A stretch of 38,162 nucleotides of DNA from a virus (lineage: Duplodnaviria > Caudoviricetes), in the IMG/VR virus record IMGVR_UViG_3300049144_000026, positions 1 to 38,162 of that record. One strand, written 5' to 3'. The translations under genes and the position numbers were made by a program. Positions 22,518 through 28,094 of the stretch are shown here, in pieces. Position 1 is the first letter of the stretch. Every line of letters begins with the position of its first letter. The notes below the pieces were generated by a model. The model was not told the origin of the DNA, ran no database searches, and was given only the letters and a program-made list of their open reading frames with translations.

Positions 22518-23735
22518 ATGAGCTTGCTCGATATACCGGGTGTCCCGGAAGGGGACCTGACGAAAGCGATGGTTGGACTCTCCAACGTGGACAACACTGC
22601 CGACGACGACAAGCCGGTCTCAGACCAGCAGGCGGCAGCGATAGCCGGTGCAGGCACGGCCCTGGCAACACCCAACACTGTGATGAGACGTGACGCTAGC
22701 GGACGGGCCTCGGTGGCCGCTCCTGTGGCCTCGACCGACATTGCGACAAAGGGCTTTGTGGAGACGTCTCTCGGCCTTGATGTCTGGCCAGCCAACATAG
22801 GTGCGAAGATCGGCTTTGTCGGAGACTCAAACATGTCCGGCTTCGGGCTGGCCAACCCGGCCACGGAACGGTGGCCTAAGCTGTTCTCCACCATGGCCGG
22901 GGCGATAGAGAACAACGTCGCAGTCGCTGGCGCCGGGTACATCAACCAGGGATCTGGAGGGGCGTCCAAGTTCGCCAACCAGGCACCCCTCCTCGCCGCG
23001 GATTGTACCCACGTCATCATCAACGGCGGCATCAACGACGCCCCACTCACCTACACGGTGGCTGCTATTCAGGCGGAAGTAGCTGCAACCATCGCCGCGG
23101 TACGCACCGCGGCCCCGGCGGCTCGTATTACCGTCATCTCCCCATTCTGGATGGCGTCCGCCCCGTCCGATGGGCTCCTCCGCGTGGATTCAGAAATCCG
23201 CCCCGCCATACCTTCGGACGTCCGCTACATCGAGGGTGGCCCGTGGATCCGGCTGGACCGAACTGAGTGGCAGCAAGGAGACGGGCACCCGAACGTTGCC
23301 GGCGCTGCGGCTATCGCAGCGTGGGCCCGTGACCAGTTCGGCGGCACCCCTAAGGGTGCGGTGTTCGGGCAGTACATCCTTGCCGGAACGTCGGACGTGC
23401 TGGTCAGTTCCCGTAGCACCACCACTCCGACGGCCTACACCATCGCCTCAGGAACGGTGTTGGGGGCCAAGTCGGGGTGGTGGGAGGTTGAGGGTCAGCT
23501 GGTCCTGTACAGTGCGGCCAACGGTTTCATATGGGTGATGGAGACGGCACGCAAAGTTTCGATCAGAAGCGACGTCACGGCGGCTCCGCTCGTTCATCGG
23601 CAGAAGATCAAGTTCTACCACCCTGGCGGGGACCTGATCGTCAAGGTCGGCTATGACCCCAGCACCGGGGCCGCACAGATCATCACATCTGCACAGTCCA
23701 AGGTGACCGCCCGATGGGTAGGTATCCAGCCGTGA
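22518..23735 (+). CDS. Tail-associated SGNH/GDSL esterase
   Basis: Tail-fibre motif TKAMVGLSNVDNTADDDKPVS; SGNH blocks GDS, AGAG, GIND and DGHPN; AGGAGG RBS. Confidence 0.85.
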   Translation: MSLLDIPGVPEGDLTKAMVGLSNVDNTADDDKPVSDQQAAAIAGAGTALATPNTVMRRDASGRASVAAPVASTDIATKGFVETSLGLDVWPANIGAKIGFVGDSNMSGFGLANPATERWPKLFSTMAGAIENNVAVAGAGYINQGSGGASKFANQAPLLAADCTHVIINGGINDAPLTYTVAAIQAEVAATIAAVRTAAPAARITVISPFWMASAPSDGLLRVDSEIRPAIPSDVRYIEGGPWIRLDRTEWQQGDGHPNVAGAAAIAAWARDQFGGTPKGAVFGQYILAGTSDVLVSSRSTTTPTAYTIASGTVLGAKSGWWEVEGQLVLYSAANGFIWVMETARKVSIRSDVTAAPLVHRQKIKFYHPGGDLIVKVGYDPSTGAAQIITSAQSKVTARWVGIQP

Positions 23736-23779
23736 CAGAAATGCCCCCACCAGCCAAGTGCCGGTGGGGGCATTTTGTC
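23734..23779. terminator. Bidirectional terminator between the convergent SGNH genes
   Basis: GACAGAAATGCCCCCACC...GGTGGGGGCATTTTGTC inverted repeat. Confidence 0.85.
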
Positions 23780-23800
23780 GTTTCCGTTCAGCGCACGGTA

Positions 23801-24442
23801 CTAGATCCCGAGTTTGCTCAGAGCTGCACTGATGTTGGCGGCCAGTGCAGCAGCGCCGGCGTCGTTCGGGTGCATGTGGTCCCCCGCGAGCAGTGAAGGG
23901 TCGCCCAGCCAGTTACCGGGCAGGGCATCGATGAAAGTCGCGCCGGCGTCTTTCGCGGCAGCAGCCAGTTCGCTATTGGCTACACGGATTGAAGGAGCTG
24001 GTTCGGTGTTGTCCCACATGGGGCCGATAACGACCAGGCGCACGTTAGGAAATCTTTCCCTCAGTCGGTTGAAGACGTCAGTCGCTTCAGCACGCACCAG
24101 GTCGGGGCGATGGATATCGTTCCGGGAGCCAGCCAGGATAATCAGATCGGGGCGTCCCGTGATGCGGTCAACTTCCCTGCCGAAGCCGCCGTTTGCGTAG
24201 CCCAGCCCTCCGATGGCCACATTCTGCACCGTGAAGTCTCTGGACTCATCGAGCATCGCGGGCCACGCTTTGGTGTACCGGTCGGGGCTTGAGTAGGAGT
24301 CACCGATGACGGCGACCGTCTCAATCTTCTGCGACGTGGCCACCCACCCCATGCCGAGGCAGAACAGCATCCCTGCGAGTACGACGAAATGGGGAGAACT
24401 GCTGCGCCTGGGTCCGCGGGAAGAATGCCGTGCGTTATCCAA
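23801..24442 (-). CDS. Membrane-anchored or exported SGNH/GDSL esterase
   Basis: TTG start after a G-run RBS; basic N-terminus plus hydrophobic helix; GDS, GGLGY, GSRND and DHMHPN blocks. The longer ORF call to 24634 runs through the tRNA. Confidence 0.85.
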   Translation of the reverse strand: MDNARHSSRGPRRSSSPHFVVLAGMLFCLGMGWVATSQKIETVAVIGDSYSSPDRYTKAWPAMLDESRDFTVQNVAIGGLGYANGGFGREVDRITGRPDLIILAGSRNDIHRPDLVRAEATDVFNRLRERFPNVRLVVIGPMWDNTEPAPSIRVANSELAAAAKDAGATFIDALPGNWLGDPSLLAGDHMHPNDAGAAALAANISAALSKLGI

Positions 24443-24499
24443 ATTTCCCCCCCAATAGTCACAAACCACATAAGAATACCCGAGCCCGCACGCATTGTT

Positions 24500-24529
24500 T
24501 TGTTCCGCGTATTCGTGCGGCGTTACACT
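24500..24529 (+). promoter_or_regulatory. Putative tRNA promoter
   Basis: TTGTTC-N18-TACACT, ending 12 nt before the tRNA. Confidence 0.6.
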
Positions 24530-24541
24530 TGATTCCGCTGG

Positions 24542-24614
24542 GCCCCAGTAGCTCAGGGGATAGAGCAGAGGCTTTCTAATCCTCCGGTCGGGGGTTCGAT
24601 TCCCTCCTGGGGCA
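24542..24614 (+). tRNA. tRNA-Arg(TCT), complete, no encoded CCA
   Basis: Acceptor GCCCCAG/CTGGGGC, D-arm GCTC/GAGC, anticodon arm GAGGC-TT TCT AA-TCCTC, T-arm GGGGG-TTCGATT-CCCTC. Confidence 0.92.
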
Positions 24615-24619
24615 CGCGA

Positions 24620-24658
24620 AGGGCCGGACACCATTTGGGTGTCCGGCCCTCTTTTCTT
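24620..24658 (+). terminator. Intrinsic terminator after the tRNA (also faces int)
   Basis: AGGGCCGGACACC-N5-GGTGTCCGGCCCT followed by CTTTTCTT. Confidence 0.88.
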
Positions 24659-24661
24659 GTG

Positions 24662-25543
24662 TCAGGCCGCTACAGGTTCGGCCCTCCGCCGGCCGGAGCG
24701 CTCAGGGACGATGATGGCGGGAAGCTTATCGAAGCCGTGACGGATACCTTCCGGCCGCAGCTTCAGATACATCGTGGTGGTGTCCATGTTCGAGTGACGC
24801 ATACTCCTCTGGACCACAAAGTCACTCACTCCGGCATCGTGCATCTCCGTTGCCAGGGAAGCCCGGAGGTCGTGCGGGCGGTGATTCAGGCCGGCGCGCT
24901 TTATTGCCTCACCGATCAACCCGGAAACCGAGTTCCCCATGATGTGTCCCTCTCCCGCAGCGTGAAGCCGGTTTGCTGTCCTGTTGGGGAACCAGTACTT
25001 ATCGCGAGGCATCTGAAGGAACAACGGCCACGCGGCCTCCGGGATGGGCAGTGTGGCCTGCTTCCTCCCTTTGCCGACTGTCGTAAGGGTTCGCTTCTCC
25101 CAGTCGATGTCAGCGCCATGCACGGCCGCGATCTCCGAGACCCTCAACCCGAGGTAATAGTGAAGCGCTACCATCATCCTGGTCTTCCTGTAGATCCCGC
25201 CCTCAAGCAGCGCGTTGATCTCCTCCACGGTGAACGGATTCGGCTCACGCTTCCGAGTAGCAACCCTTGGCAACCGATAGGCCGGATTATCAAGACGCAG
25301 ACCCTCATCCTGCATCCAGGCAAAGAACGTATGGAGCCCTGAGCGACGATGGACACGCGTTGAATTGGACCAGTTCTGCTTAGCCGTCCAATGGATCAGA
25401 TCCCGCCGGCTAACCGTCTCCAAGCTCTCGACATCACGAGCCAGCTGCCGAATGAAGATCAGGCGCTCGCGGATTGTCTTGTCCGTGAGGTCTGCCGCTT
25501 TCATGCACGCTGTCCAGTAGTTAAGTGTGTCGTCGGTGTTCAT
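24662..25543 (-). CDS. int: Tyrosine integrase lacking an N-terminal arm-binding domain
   Basis: GLRVSE, GKGRK, HDLR, RHS and TMY catalytic motifs; only 293 aa; C-terminus ...AEPVAA; AGGGGG RBS before ATG 25543. Confidence 0.93.
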   Translation of the reverse strand: MNTDDTLNYWTACMKAADLTDKTIRERLIFIRQLARDVESLETVSRRDLIHWTAKQNWSNSTRVHRRSGLHTFFAWMQDEGLRLDNPAYRLPRVATRKREPNPFTVEEINALLEGGIYRKTRMMVALHYYLGLRVSEIAAVHGADIDWEKRTLTTVGKGRKQATLPIPEAAWPLFLQMPRDKYWFPNRTANRLHAAGEGHIMGNSVSGLIGEAIKRAGLNHRPHDLRASLATEMHDAGVSDFVVQRSMRHSNMDTTTMYLKLRPEGIRHGFDKLPAIIVPERSGRRRAEPVAA

Positions 25544-25656
25544 CTTGCCCCCTGCAATTTGTCGTACCCCCATGGGTTACTTGTTTTTCGGACCAACAGT
25601 GTTTTTACACGTAAATTCTTTTTGATGTTTTTATAGCCTGAAAGGTTGACCAATCT

Positions 25657-25693
25657 CAGGGCCTGCATTTGCAGGCCCTGGTTTCTTTGTTTT
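25657..25693 (+). terminator. Hairpin plus U-tract upstream of int (antisense-direction terminator)
   Basis: CAGGGCCTGC-ATTT-GCAGGCCCTG followed by GTTTCTTTGTTTT. Confidence 0.75.
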
Positions 25694-26181
25694 GACCAAT
25701 ACCGCAGAGGGAAGCAGAGTGAGTTGGGAGGGGAGACTTCTGCCTTCTGGTCCGGACCAAAAGCACAGGGCTGTGCTGGTGGTGACGGACTAAAAGACAG
25801 GAGCGTTTACGTTGACACCGCGTCGGTTGCGTCGGTCGTCGGTCGTATCGCAGCTGGCTCAGGGCATTACTCCTGGGCAGTGGCGGCATCCTCCTGCTGT
25901 GGAGCTGGAGGGCGGTATGTGTGCAGATCTGGCGGCCCGGCTGGGCCCACTGTAGGTGCTGGCACTTCTTCGATTCCACGGGATTGCTCTTCCGGGTGAA
26001 CACCCTGCCTGCACACGCGACATTGGAACTGGCTCTAACCCAGTAAGCAGCCCGCAGGTGAGGGCTTAGCGTGTTTTGAGGCGCGACAAAGCACCAGGCG
26101 GGGTAGCCGTACCGCCTCGGTATTTGAGGCAGCACAGCAGCGGGTATGGAGTATGGGCGGATCAACAGTTAGACTGATGCC

Positions 26182-26261
26182 GCAGCCAGAGTTCCGTAGC
26201 CGGGAGCTGGTTGCCTAGCCGGTCCGGATGTGTGAAGACATCCGGCCGGCTCTTTACTTTT
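26182..26261 (+). ncRNA. Putative ~80-nt antisense RNA to the leftward early transcript
   Basis: -10 TAGACT at 26170-26175; hairpin 26182-26214 pairs better on + (G-U); terminator hairpin 26217-26251 plus CTTTACTTTT. Confidence 0.45.
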
Positions 26262-26331
26262 AAGTTGCTCGACGAACTCGCAGCTCCGCGTATAGCTGGA
26301 GCAGCTCGGCGAGGCGGTCCTCGCGGGTCAC
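26260..26331 (-). CDS. Putative 23-aa peptide MTREDRLAELLQLYAELRVRRAT
   Basis: GTG start overlaps the upstream TAG by 1 nt; amphipathic helix-like. Confidence 0.4.
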   Translation of the reverse strand: MTREDRLAELLQLYAELRVRRAT

Positions 26332-26675
26332 TAGTTTCCGTCGGTCCAGGGATGTTCCCATGACGGCGAACCAAGCAGGTCCAGATACGCATTGACGCCA
26401 CCGACGTGACGTTCACGGCGGTCTCTTTCGTTGCGTACGGCGACGAGCCGTGCCACCCACTTCTCAAAACCGTCTGCGCGACGTTCCTCCGGTGTCCGGA
26501 CTCGCCATGCTGGACTATCGACTACCCCAAACCTGACAGTCAGGTTGCCGATATGGGCGGTGAGACCTCTGTCGTGCTCTGCCAGGGCTGCCGGACTCGA
26601 AATGGTCAGATCGCCGGCCCATGCGGGTGCTCCCGGATGCCGTCCGGCGCTGTCACGTTCCTCGTTGGCGATCAT
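26331..26675 (-). CDS. Hypothetical protein coupled to the repressor stop
   Basis: ATGA overlap with the repressor stop codon. Confidence 0.6.
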   Translation of the reverse strand: MIANEERDSAGRHPGAPAWAGDLTISSPAALAEHDRGLTAHIGNLTVRFGVVDSPAWRVRTPEERRADGFEKWVARLVAVRNERDRRERHVGGVNAYLDLLGSPSWEHPWTDGN

Positions 26676-27085
26676 GCTGCTATCTCCAGTGGGAGGTCAT
26701 CCTCAACGAGGCGTCGGAAGGGCAGGTGCGTTACATTGGATTCAATGCCTGAACCGGCAACCTTGTAATCCAAAGGCATGGGGTTTGAGACCGCCTTAGG
26801 TTTTGGGTGACTTTCGCCGCCTCCAGGATCGGACGGGAACACTGCGGCATCCGCCCTTCCCGTCTTCAGCCATTCAACATCGACGTCGCACACGACGGCC
26901 CAGGCATTGATGACCAACTTGCCCGGCATGGTGACGCCACGCTCGTAGTTCGACACCGTAGCCCGGCTGATTCCCAGCTCTGCGGCAATATCGACCTGTT
27001 CAAAGTTCTTCAGTTCTCGCGCTAAGCGCAGCCGGTCTTTCAACTGAAATTCCGGAACTCGACTGTGCAACGGTTGAATGCTCAT
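26672..27085 (-). CDS. Immunity repressor (XRE HTH), virally encoded long form with ssrA-like C-terminus
   Basis: RLRLARE..QVDIAAELGISRATVSNYERG HTH; divergent from a Cro-like gene; ends ...LPLEIAA. Confidence 0.92.
   Translation of the reverse strand: MSIQPLHSRVPEFQLKDRLRLARELKNFEQVDIAAELGISRATVSNYERGVTMPGKLVINAWAVVCDVDVEWLKTGRADAAVFPSDPGGGESHPKPKAVSNPMPLDYKVAGSGIESNVTHLPFRRLVEDDLPLEIAA
26761..26802 (+). other. Putative attP inside the repressor gene (degenerate tRNA 3' half)
   Basis: 25/42 ungapped identity to 24572-24613 of the phage tRNA, including CTTGTAATCC vs TTTCTAATCC and GGGGTTTGA vs GGGGTTCGA. Confidence 0.7.
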
Positions 27086-27224
27086 GCGTCAAAGCTATGC
27101 CACTGTCAAAGCTTTGTCCAGAATCAAAACAACAATGTTTTATGTAATTCACAACACACGTCTTGATCTTTCCTTGTGGCAACCCTTTGACATATGCCAA
27201 TCGTGCGCTATCTTTGACATATGC
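27086..27224. promoter_or_regulatory. Divergent leaderless Prep/PR promoters with repeated operators
   Basis: +: TTGACA(27187)-N16-TATCTT-N6-ATG. -: TGGACA-N17-TAGCTT-N6-ATG. CTTTGACATATGC at 27185 and 27212; inverted CTTTGAC copies at 27088 and 27105. Confidence 0.8.
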
Positions 27225-27430
27225 AAAAAACCGAGCCCCTGATCACGACTGCACAAGCAGCAGAAGTCTCGGGTAAGAGCTTGCGGACCATCATCCGGCT
27301 TGTCGAGAAGGGGAAGTTGAACCCCGCTCAAAAGCTCCCTGGTCTGCGTGGAGCCTTCCTGTTTGACGCAGGAGACATAGAGGCCCTGAAGCCCGTCAAA
27401 AGCCCGGAGGCCCTAACCGACTCCGCCTGA
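27221..27430 (+). CDS. Cro/excisionase-like HTH protein
   Basis: LITTAQAAEVSGKSLRTIIRLV..GKL.P..KLPGLRGAFLFD; first gene of the rightward operon. Confidence 0.85.
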   Translation: MQKTEPLITTAQAAEVSGKSLRTIIRLVEKGKLNPAQKLPGLRGAFLFDAGDIEALKPVKSPEALTDSA

Positions 27431-27449
27431 CTTGCCTTTAGCTGCAAGG

Positions 27450-27551
27450 CAACAAAAAGCGGCCCAGTGCATTCCGCCAAGAACCTCACTGGACCGCTTG
27501 TAACCCAACCCAAACGCCAGCTTCCCAAAGAGACAACTGGCGCTCGAATCA
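27450..27551 (-). ncRNA. Putative ~100-nt antisense RNA to the rightward early transcript
   Basis: Minus-strand extended -10 TGaTACACT (27558-27566); hairpin 27515-27542; hairpin 27457-27499 (G-U on minus) plus TTTGTT tail. Confidence 0.45.
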
Positions 27552-27566
27552 GAATCGAGTGTATCA

Positions 27567-28094
27567 ATGGATACTTCGCGCTCACAGGAAACCCCCGTCC
27601 TCCCCCGCAACATGTTCTTCGGCGCTGAAGACCGTAGAGCGGGACGTACAAAGGTTGAAGAGAAGGTCCTCGCCCCGGAGAGGGGTTACCGGCAAGGTCT
27701 GGCCGAGCATGTCATCACCGAGGCCAACCATCTCATCAATGCAGTCCGAACCCTCCGGGCCTTTGACCGGACGGGCAACGCTGAAATGGCGCTGGATCAT
27801 CTGCAGCGGACTCTCCTTGATCTCCGGAGACACACTGCGAACCTGGTCGACGAAGTCAAAGCTTCGGTGGACCGCTGCGGGGCGAATGACGCTCCGCCCA
27901 TGAACTCGGCAGCCGTCGTTGAGCCAATCCCCCAGGCTCCGGCGGCTGCCGACCAAACCAAACCGGCCGAGCCTAAGCTCAGGATCATCCACGATGAGCC
28001 GGTCCACATCGAACCGCGGATCACGCCCCTGACGATGATCAAGAGCATCGATGCTGCCCTGACTCACGCAGGGCGCAACCGTGCTGGCCGTTGA
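27567..28094 (+). CDS. Hypothetical protein
   Basis: 175-aa ORF in the early operon. Confidence 0.65.
   Translation: MDTSRSQETPVLPRNMFFGAEDRRAGRTKVEEKVLAPERGYRQGLAEHVITEANHLINAVRTLRAFDRTGNAEMALDHLQRTLLDLRRHTANLVDEVKASVDRCGANDAPPMNSAAVVEPIPQAPAAADQTKPAEPKLRIIHDEPVHIEPRITPLTMIKSIDAALTHAGRNRAGR

Follow-up and report, generated by a model that had tools for sequence, protein, structure and literature searches.

What happens to a lysogen when the phage attachment site (attP) lies inside the phage repressor gene and holds no half of a transfer RNA (tRNA) gene from which the host target could be restored? The question is raised by a locus near positions 24,500 to 27,085 of IMG/VR virus record IMGVR_UViG_3300049144_000026 (Caudoviricetes). 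The whole 38,162-base record was analyzed and is called the window here. The locus holds an integrase gene (int), an immunity repressor gene (rep) and a gene for tRNA-Arg(TCT). Judged by its similarity to cluster FF Arthrobacter phages (72-78% identity across 38-67% of positions 24000-28000), the window phage is a cluster FF-like Arthrobacter phage from soil with an Arthrobacter-type host.

Very probably, integration at a core of 6 base pairs (bp), TAATCC, splits the host's single tRNA-Arg(TCT) gene in the anticodon loop, gives rise to a shortened repressor that is predicted to be stable, and renders the lysogen likely dependent on the phage tRNA. As we envisage it, the integrase would recombine the core in rep with the anticodon loop of the host gene, which would be left as two halves forming no tRNA. 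A host anticodon base would create a stop codon, the resulting stable repressor of 106 amino acids (aa) would switch on immunity, and the phage tRNA would supply the reading of AGA codons in the lysogen. Two switches so far described in different phages thus appear to be joined in one.

Integration Within the Repressor Gene Splits a Host tRNA Gene

The tyrosine integrase is encoded at 24662..25543 (-) and the helix-turn-helix (HTH) repressor at 26672..27085 (-). Within rep lies the attP core region CCTT-GTAATCCA-AAGG (26761..26776, +), an inverted repeat around 8 bp with predicted integrase binding sites; it encloses the common core TAATCC (26766..26771, +), which equals positions 36-41 of the host tRNA-Arg(TCT). 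An integrase scan of genome contigs yielded nine loci (L004-L012). In five of them (L004, L006-L009; integrases 83-87% identical) the repressor tail is fused to the 3' half of the host tRNA-Arg(TCT). All five of these Arthrobacter-type lysogens have the host tRNA split at TAATCC into the left and right attachment sites (attL and attR), and each genome holds the 5' half, the 3' half and an intact gene once each, with the intact gene beside int. The halves are 35-36 kilobases (kb) apart in the three lysogens that have both on one contig (G001, G002, G004), and host sugar-metabolism-like genes follow the split tRNA in both lysogens read. A sixth locus, L010 in a Leifsonia genome (G406, integrase 56% identical), has the same layout with the core TAATCT.

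A search of 401 Micrococcaceae genomes added two split-tRNA cases, G048 and G261 (integrases 64 and 56% identical), and a 1.8-kb prophage remnant in G122 (C1:1111886-1113641; L110), in which both host halves are mutated and int is truncated. In that genome the phage-type tRNA-Arg(TCT) is intact and is the only TCT copy found. The system thus occurs in four of the 401 genomes (G001, G048, G261, G122), and eight lysogen genomes plus one decayed remnant make up the total of elements with a split host gene. [quoted passage not shown] ARAGORN detected no tRNA at any of the ten junction loci, and none of three folded attL sequences had an acceptor stem. For the predicted attL of the window phage it reported no tRNA at the default or 90% threshold, and a poor, mis-called match at 80% only. 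These results bear out a reading made earlier from the sequence alone, which had placed attP in the repressor gene, named the host tRNA-Arg(TCT) as the target that integration breaks, and taken the stand-alone phage tRNA for the compensating copy. It had called for a check of genome junctions and for a host tRNA matching the arm well enough to be rebuilt; the junctions map to the repressor and not to the intact phage tRNA, and no host tRNA matches in that way.

Both junctions of the window phage itself were found in one of four soil metagenomes (X1-X4) compared with the region; X1 is possibly the source, and the shares of runs X5-X10 are small. In X3, which held 0.94 of the sampled words, long phage contigs break off at 26771 and resume from 26766. 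Contigs of 54 nucleotides (nt), the length expected from a 31-mer graph and a 6-bp core, represent attP (depth 43.5), the host 5' half joined to the phage right arm (34.1) and the phage left arm joined to the host 3' half (15); depth of a contig in a metagenome does not equal a share of cells. A fourth 54-nt contig (depth 19.2), centered on the tRNA core with three differences, is probably the bacterial attachment site (attB) of the host. Both host-phage junctions of this phage therefore sit at the TAATCC core inside the repressor gene. The core region is the sole site in the window within three mismatches, and its 16 bp are within two changes of the window's in 12/12 virion-form genomes, with core and flanks identical. 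The rebuilt attP of G048 has a different inverted repeat with equal 8-bp spacing; no clear inverted repeat was seen in the attP of G261, G406 or Microbacterium phage Min1. A tRNA-Thr(TGT) target, considered from the TTGTAA in attP, was rejected, as the junctions are all in tRNA-Arg(TCT).

The integrase is 83-87% identical to FF phage and prophage integrases, and 34-36% identical to the listed mycobacteriophage integrases such as that of Fishburne. All eight FF phages (QuinnAvery, Nandita, Ryan, Popper, Cole, Zaheer, Elesar, Gusanita) share the core in the repressor, a tRNA-Arg(TCT) past int and an integrase of 83-86% identity. A second integrase is reported for seven of the eight (PMC13097055, as far as its text was available). 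It was rejected as the integration agent: only one of the five lysogens carries it, and it is absent from the window. The leftward integrase alone is, for the same reason, likely sufficient for integration. Where most FF phages have the second integrase, left of the tRNA, the window has a GDSL/SGNH hydrolase gene (23801-24436, -); FF phages have an esterase/lipase gene near this place as well. In Min1 (EF579802; L076) an unannotated tRNA-Arg(TCT) lies at the int end (42-117), and a TAATCC core lies in the repressor frame (1066-1413, ...KDYK).

Several loci were set aside. L011 and L012 have distant integrases (25-31%) and no tRNA nearby, and G407, with an intact host tRNA elsewhere, is not this system. 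In G778 (C10:15947-16878; L079) a tRNA-Val(TAC) starts about 10 bp past a 42% identical integrase; no further copy of it was found, and no split halves were seen. Ten genomes had two 5'-half matches: G001, G048 and G261 belong to this system, G311 was left out, and G065, G091, G134, G270, G156 and G286 are not this system. In G065, G091, G134 and G270 (L098, L100, L101, L103-L107) an orphan tRNA-Arg(TCT) 5' half lies 7.6-29 kb upstream of the intact copy (on separate contigs in G134), with no repressor match and no related integrase match at these loci; they are possibly elements that duplicate the tRNA 5' half, the reverse of the usual rule. G156 (C56:148000-156000; L113) carries an 8-kb array of 19 tRNA genes, among them a second tRNA-Arg(TCT) that has T32. 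Scoring of two candidates per genome was excluded from the copy counts, and the unpublished G136 enters the genome tallies only.

Integration Is Predicted to Shorten the Repressor

At attL, the middle anticodon base of the host converts a Tyr codon of the repressor to TAG, so that ...PLD-Tyr becomes ...PLD-stop. Because of this base, the repressors end after ...PLD at attL in all five Arthrobacter-type lysogens, and a stop at attL is present in all eight lysogens. An attP base identical to the host's would already stop the virion repressor, so that the two must differ. When attP was rebuilt in silico, the tails returned in 5/5 cases, ending in LEIAA, LRKTA or SEIAA. The window repressor is predicted to go from 137 aa in the virion form to 106 aa in the prophage, with loss of a 31-aa tail ending in LEIAA. 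Virion-form repressors end in AA in eight of 12 cases, in TA in three and in VA in one; Int, which ends in ...EPVAA in the window (293 aa), has a C-terminal AA in 19/19 complete relatives. Following the general logic of ClpXP tags, the ...AA tails, ssrA-like in sequence, would be ClpXP-type tags and the long repressor would be unstable. The repressor tail is thus likely a degradation tag, and tag-dependent instability may apply to both the long repressor and Int. The annotation of Popper (L002 1474-1719, 3901-4344) names as Cro the gene that contains the attP core and assigns the immunity repressor to a different gene; the junctions point to Popper gene 41 as the repressor.

The Phage tRNA is Recoded at the Integrase Target

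The phage tRNA-Arg(TCT), the proposed replacement gene (24542..24615, +; ARAGORN; Rfam 62.4 bits), is identical to that of the Arthrobacter-type host except at positions 28, 32 and 42. The 21 loci examined gave 20 phage copies (L055 ends before the tRNA), which are related, some loci perhaps being one prophage. All 20 differ from the Arthrobacter-type host tRNA at positions 28-44, and elsewhere there are just two single exceptions. They form three haplotypes, changed at 32 only, at 28, 32 and 42, or at 28, 29, 41, 42 and 44. Every haplotype is changed in the core or in the left half of the inverted repeat, and the changes in the stem compensate each other. Among the matches listed, 27 host rows have one unchanged anticodon arm in common. 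Without such changes the phage copy would constitute an attB in direct orientation at 2.2 kb from attP, and int would be deleted by recombination. On balance we favor the view that the anticodon-arm changes keep the phage tRNA from acting as a second attB for its own integrase.

A serious competitor, possible if short of probable, is that the differences reflect ancestry in another host genus or escape from nucleases. The anticodon stem varies among Micrococcaceae genera, so these readings remain; moreover, the 20 related copies amount to only three haplotypes, and the single listed copy of G264 has T32. Against it, the copies equal the host outside positions 28-44 apart from the two exceptions, and the stem changes are compensatory. 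The phage tRNA of G261 has its own host's letters outside the target and differs from them at 28, 29, 32, 41, 42 and 44. T32 occurs in 4/150 matches listed, all four element-borne, and haplotype B is absent from the other 149 matches listed.

The Right Arm of attP

The attP right arm (26772..26804, +) cannot rebuild a tRNA but carries a weak resemblance to the tRNA 3' half. The sequence-only reading had relied on an ungapped 25/42 alignment of 26761-26802 with the 3' part of the phage tRNA. This alignment was reproduced, as was the divergence at the 3' end (TTAGGTT vs CTGGGGC), but at an unrelated place on the minus strand of the window this 42-mer reaches 26/42, and at two further places 24/42, so that 25/42 alone is at chance level. 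When aligned in the register of the core, the following 33 bases agree with the host tRNA at 16/33 positions; the local null is 8.9 +/- 2.5, with 16 reached at 1.1% of offsets. Eleven distinct related arms have a mean of 13.1 (null 9.2), all above their own null mean, and the matches cluster at T-loop positions. In Fishburne, a cluster P phage whose integrase is 34% identical, the repressor contains a complete tRNA 3' half in the corresponding place and frame; the window phage has a weak vestige only. The attP arm thus likely descends from a full tRNA 3' half.

That the arm was never a tRNA half, the core having been short from the start and the arm being repressor coding sequence plus integrase site, is rather unlikely in view of the 11/11 arms, the T-loop clustering and Fishburne. 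In its favor, most arms score 12-14/33, within one to two standard deviations of the null; no ancestor with a full 3' half and a close integrase was found in the scans made; and the order of events is left open in the Discussion of PMC10865867, in the part of that paper available. G017, which rebuilds a tRNA-Arg, was rejected as the ancestral form (distant integrase-like match of 26% only, no repressor match). The suggestion that compensation in trans had freed attP to drift thus holds in part: a vestige exists, but the 16 bp around the core are not drifting, since they are conserved in 12/12 virion forms and form the inverted repeat.

Probable Dependence of Lysogens on the Phage tRNA

Among the 401 Micrococcaceae genomes, 329 matched an intact-tRNA pattern, and tRNA-Arg(TCT) is single-copy in 327 of these and present twice in two. 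Because the reading of AGA requires a U34 anticodon, the host should need tRNA-Arg(UCU) for AGA codons and loss of the gene should be lethal or crippling; a phage without its tRNA would therefore be expected to kill its lysogens. The phage copy is likely the only working one in a lysogen, which thus likely depends on it. That viable lysogens require this tRNA is suggested by comparison, namely by the 9/9 elements and the remnant in G122. A complete tRNA-Arg(TCT) past int had been claimed together with a terminator and a promoter. The gene and an intrinsic terminator-like hairpin with a T-run 3' of it (24620..24650, +; arms conserved, loops variable among relatives) stand. For the promoter, a consensus scan found none before the tRNA, but a predicted -10 element, TACACT (24524..24529, +), argues for one, since TANNNT is kept in 13/13 aligned loci.

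The same integration and repressor clipping could go together with a tRNA kept mainly for lytic growth, through AGA supply or escape from anticodon nucleases, so that lysogens could live without it. This is quite improbable. AGA does account for 17/417 Arg codons in 17 phage open reading frames (ORFs) against 1/132 in six host ORFs, a small sample, and phage tRNAs with anticodon-loop changes have been proposed to evade nucleases (PMC10264068, available in part). However, 9/9 elements carry the sole TCT copy found intact, G122 has kept the tRNA while losing most of its phage DNA, AGA is read by a U34 anticodon only, and int and rep contain no AGA codon. Finally, the usual arrangement, with the intact tRNA beside int as attP (its established position), the host tRNA rebuilt and the repressor match due to chance (as 25/42 alone would allow), is almost certainly wrong, given 8/8 junction pairs in the repressor gene, the intact prophage tRNA and the X3 branches at 26766-26771.

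Several points weigh against the proposal of a splitting, repressor-clipping and tRNA-dependent integration. Protein stability, immunity and tRNA dependence are all deduced here from sequence. The X3 junction contigs have just 24-30 bases per side, below the 31-base bridging rule of the tool, and over this region the contigs of X1, X2 and X4 gave the attP form only, with no junction. The lysogen genomes are drafts in which a second host copy could escape detection, and in G003 and G005 the halves are on separate contigs. One RNA run (0.05 of sampled words) gave no evidence of phage tRNA expression. On L005, a short contig with the tRNA present and the junction out of reach, the integrase (349-1224) is interrupted in frame by a stop near codon 52; the tRNA and a second integrase beside it are both intact. 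The layout of the window phage recurs in Min1, despite the reported integration of that phage into plasmid pMN1 (PMC7302621, which in the part available lists 0 tRNAs for it; also PMC9030533, likewise available in part). Lastly, BPs-type phages have a compact int-rep-cro unit of about 2 kb, whereas the window has 1.1 kb and an extra ORF between rep and int, its own tRNA beside int and an Arthrobacter-type host; because it lacks the compact unit, the cassette counts as a variant of integration-dependent immunity.

Taken to its full extent, the proposal would be that one recombination flips the lysis-lysogeny switch while destroying a host gene that is essential, that recoding in at least three ways, precisely where the integrase acts, protects the rescuing tRNA against self-recombination, that the lysogen is addicted to it, and that on prophage decay the recoded tRNA permanently replaces the host gene, as in G122. 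We give this chain as a whole an even chance. One way in which phage tRNA genes take the place of host genes is suggested by the recoded tRNA together with the remnant in G122, and a replacement of the G122 type would, if real, also make the lineage resistant to re-lysogenization at this site. Since cultured cluster FF teaching phages (Arthrobacter globiformis B-2979) carry the system, it is testable now. For cluster FF, an attachment site and a likely working integrase can be named and the tRNA given a role; the 6-bp core explains why BLAST misses such attB sites. Integration vectors for Arthrobacter derived from these phages are predicted to need the tRNA gene.

Other Features of the Region

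Rep and int are both oriented leftward and are 1.1 kb apart, the interval being filled by a 114-aa ORF (26331..26675, -) coupled to the repressor stop and a spacer of about 790 bp that separates int from the repressor operon (25544..26330). The ORF has a 72% match in prophage L004 and no family match in a profile search. The spacer contains a terminator-like hairpin (25656-25681); parts of it are 75-86% conserved in 13/13 relatives tested, without an Rfam match, and 25928-26041 also matches unannotated DNA of phages Aoka and EvenBluerMoon. An Rfam scan of 23500-28000 gave no match besides the tRNA. Divergent from rep, a 69-aa HTH gene (27221..27430, +; PF12728, phrog_66, phrog_2474) is cro/xis-like. 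The rep-cro control region (27086..27220) contains a promoter-like site directed rightward (27187-27214) and recurring operator-like motifs; four such motifs, two of the TGTCAAAG type and two CTTTGACA, occur as direct and inverted repeats in the interval 27087-27227.

Comparison with Known Systems

The papers cited in this section were available in part, and statements about them refer to those parts. Integration-dependent immunity is described for BPs (cluster G), Brujita (I), Charlie (N) and cluster P (PMC3694055, PMC4557955). The window phage resembles BPs-type phages in its leftward rep and int, rightward cro-like gene and attP in rep. In both, integration removes a C-terminal ...AA tail (136 to 103 aa in BPs, 137 to 106 aa here) and Int ends in AA. 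The BPs-type core is 39-40 bp long (PMC6109161, PMC9934374), whereas the core here is 6 bp without tRNA rebuilding.

Lysogeny dependent on a phage tRNA is described for Fionnbharth (K4), Cain (K6), LeBron (L), Gaia (X), BrutonGaster/OneUp (CQ2) as well as Mollymur (DL) (PMC10865867), so that such compensation, noted in the sequence-only reading for cluster K, is correct for K and extends to L, X, CQ2 and DL. These phages share with the window phage a tyrosine integrase, a short core in a host tRNA gene, no rebuilt tRNA and a phage tRNA of the same isotype. Table 2 of that paper lists Lys-TTT, Ile2-CAT and Leu-CAA with cores of 8-17 bp, compared with Arg-TCT and 6 bp here; neither an Arg nor an FF case appears in it, its supplementary file included. 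Fionnbharth-type integrases have arm-binding domains, whereas a profile search of the window integrase found PF00589 at 106-263 only and no N-terminal arm-binding domain. The tRNA of Fionnbharth is not close to that of its host; the window phage's is near-identical to its host's except at the target. For cluster FF itself, QuinnAvery forms lysogens (PMC13097055). PMC13097055, PMC12766476 and PMC12821334 give no attP, attB or tRNA role and leave the working integrase open; seven of the eight FF phages have a second integrase and the window phage has none.

The Discussion of PMC10865867 treats integration-dependent immunity as a separate system, and PMC12582341 names the two as separate examples. 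The nearest precedent is a pair of tandem prophages of Mycobacterium abscessus, prophiT36-2a/2b, in which a prophage tRNA-Thr was speculated to offset an impaired attL tRNA (Amarh 2023, PMC9934374). As here, integration-dependent immunity occurs with a putatively compensating prophage tRNA, but their core is 40 bp with two acceptor-stem mismatches, whereas here the host gene is fully split. Their tRNA belongs to the second prophage, and other MabB prophages lack it; here a single phage unites the two, a trait fixed in its lineage. The novelty presumed in the sequence-only reading is thus narrowed by this partial precedent and otherwise stands, as no statement of both systems combined in one phage was found in the literature searched, which did not extend to subscription papers. 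Integration-dependent immunity and tRNA-dependent lysogeny have each been published; their apparent combination in a single phage is new, and the recoding of the phage tRNA at the integrase target is a new feature beyond both.

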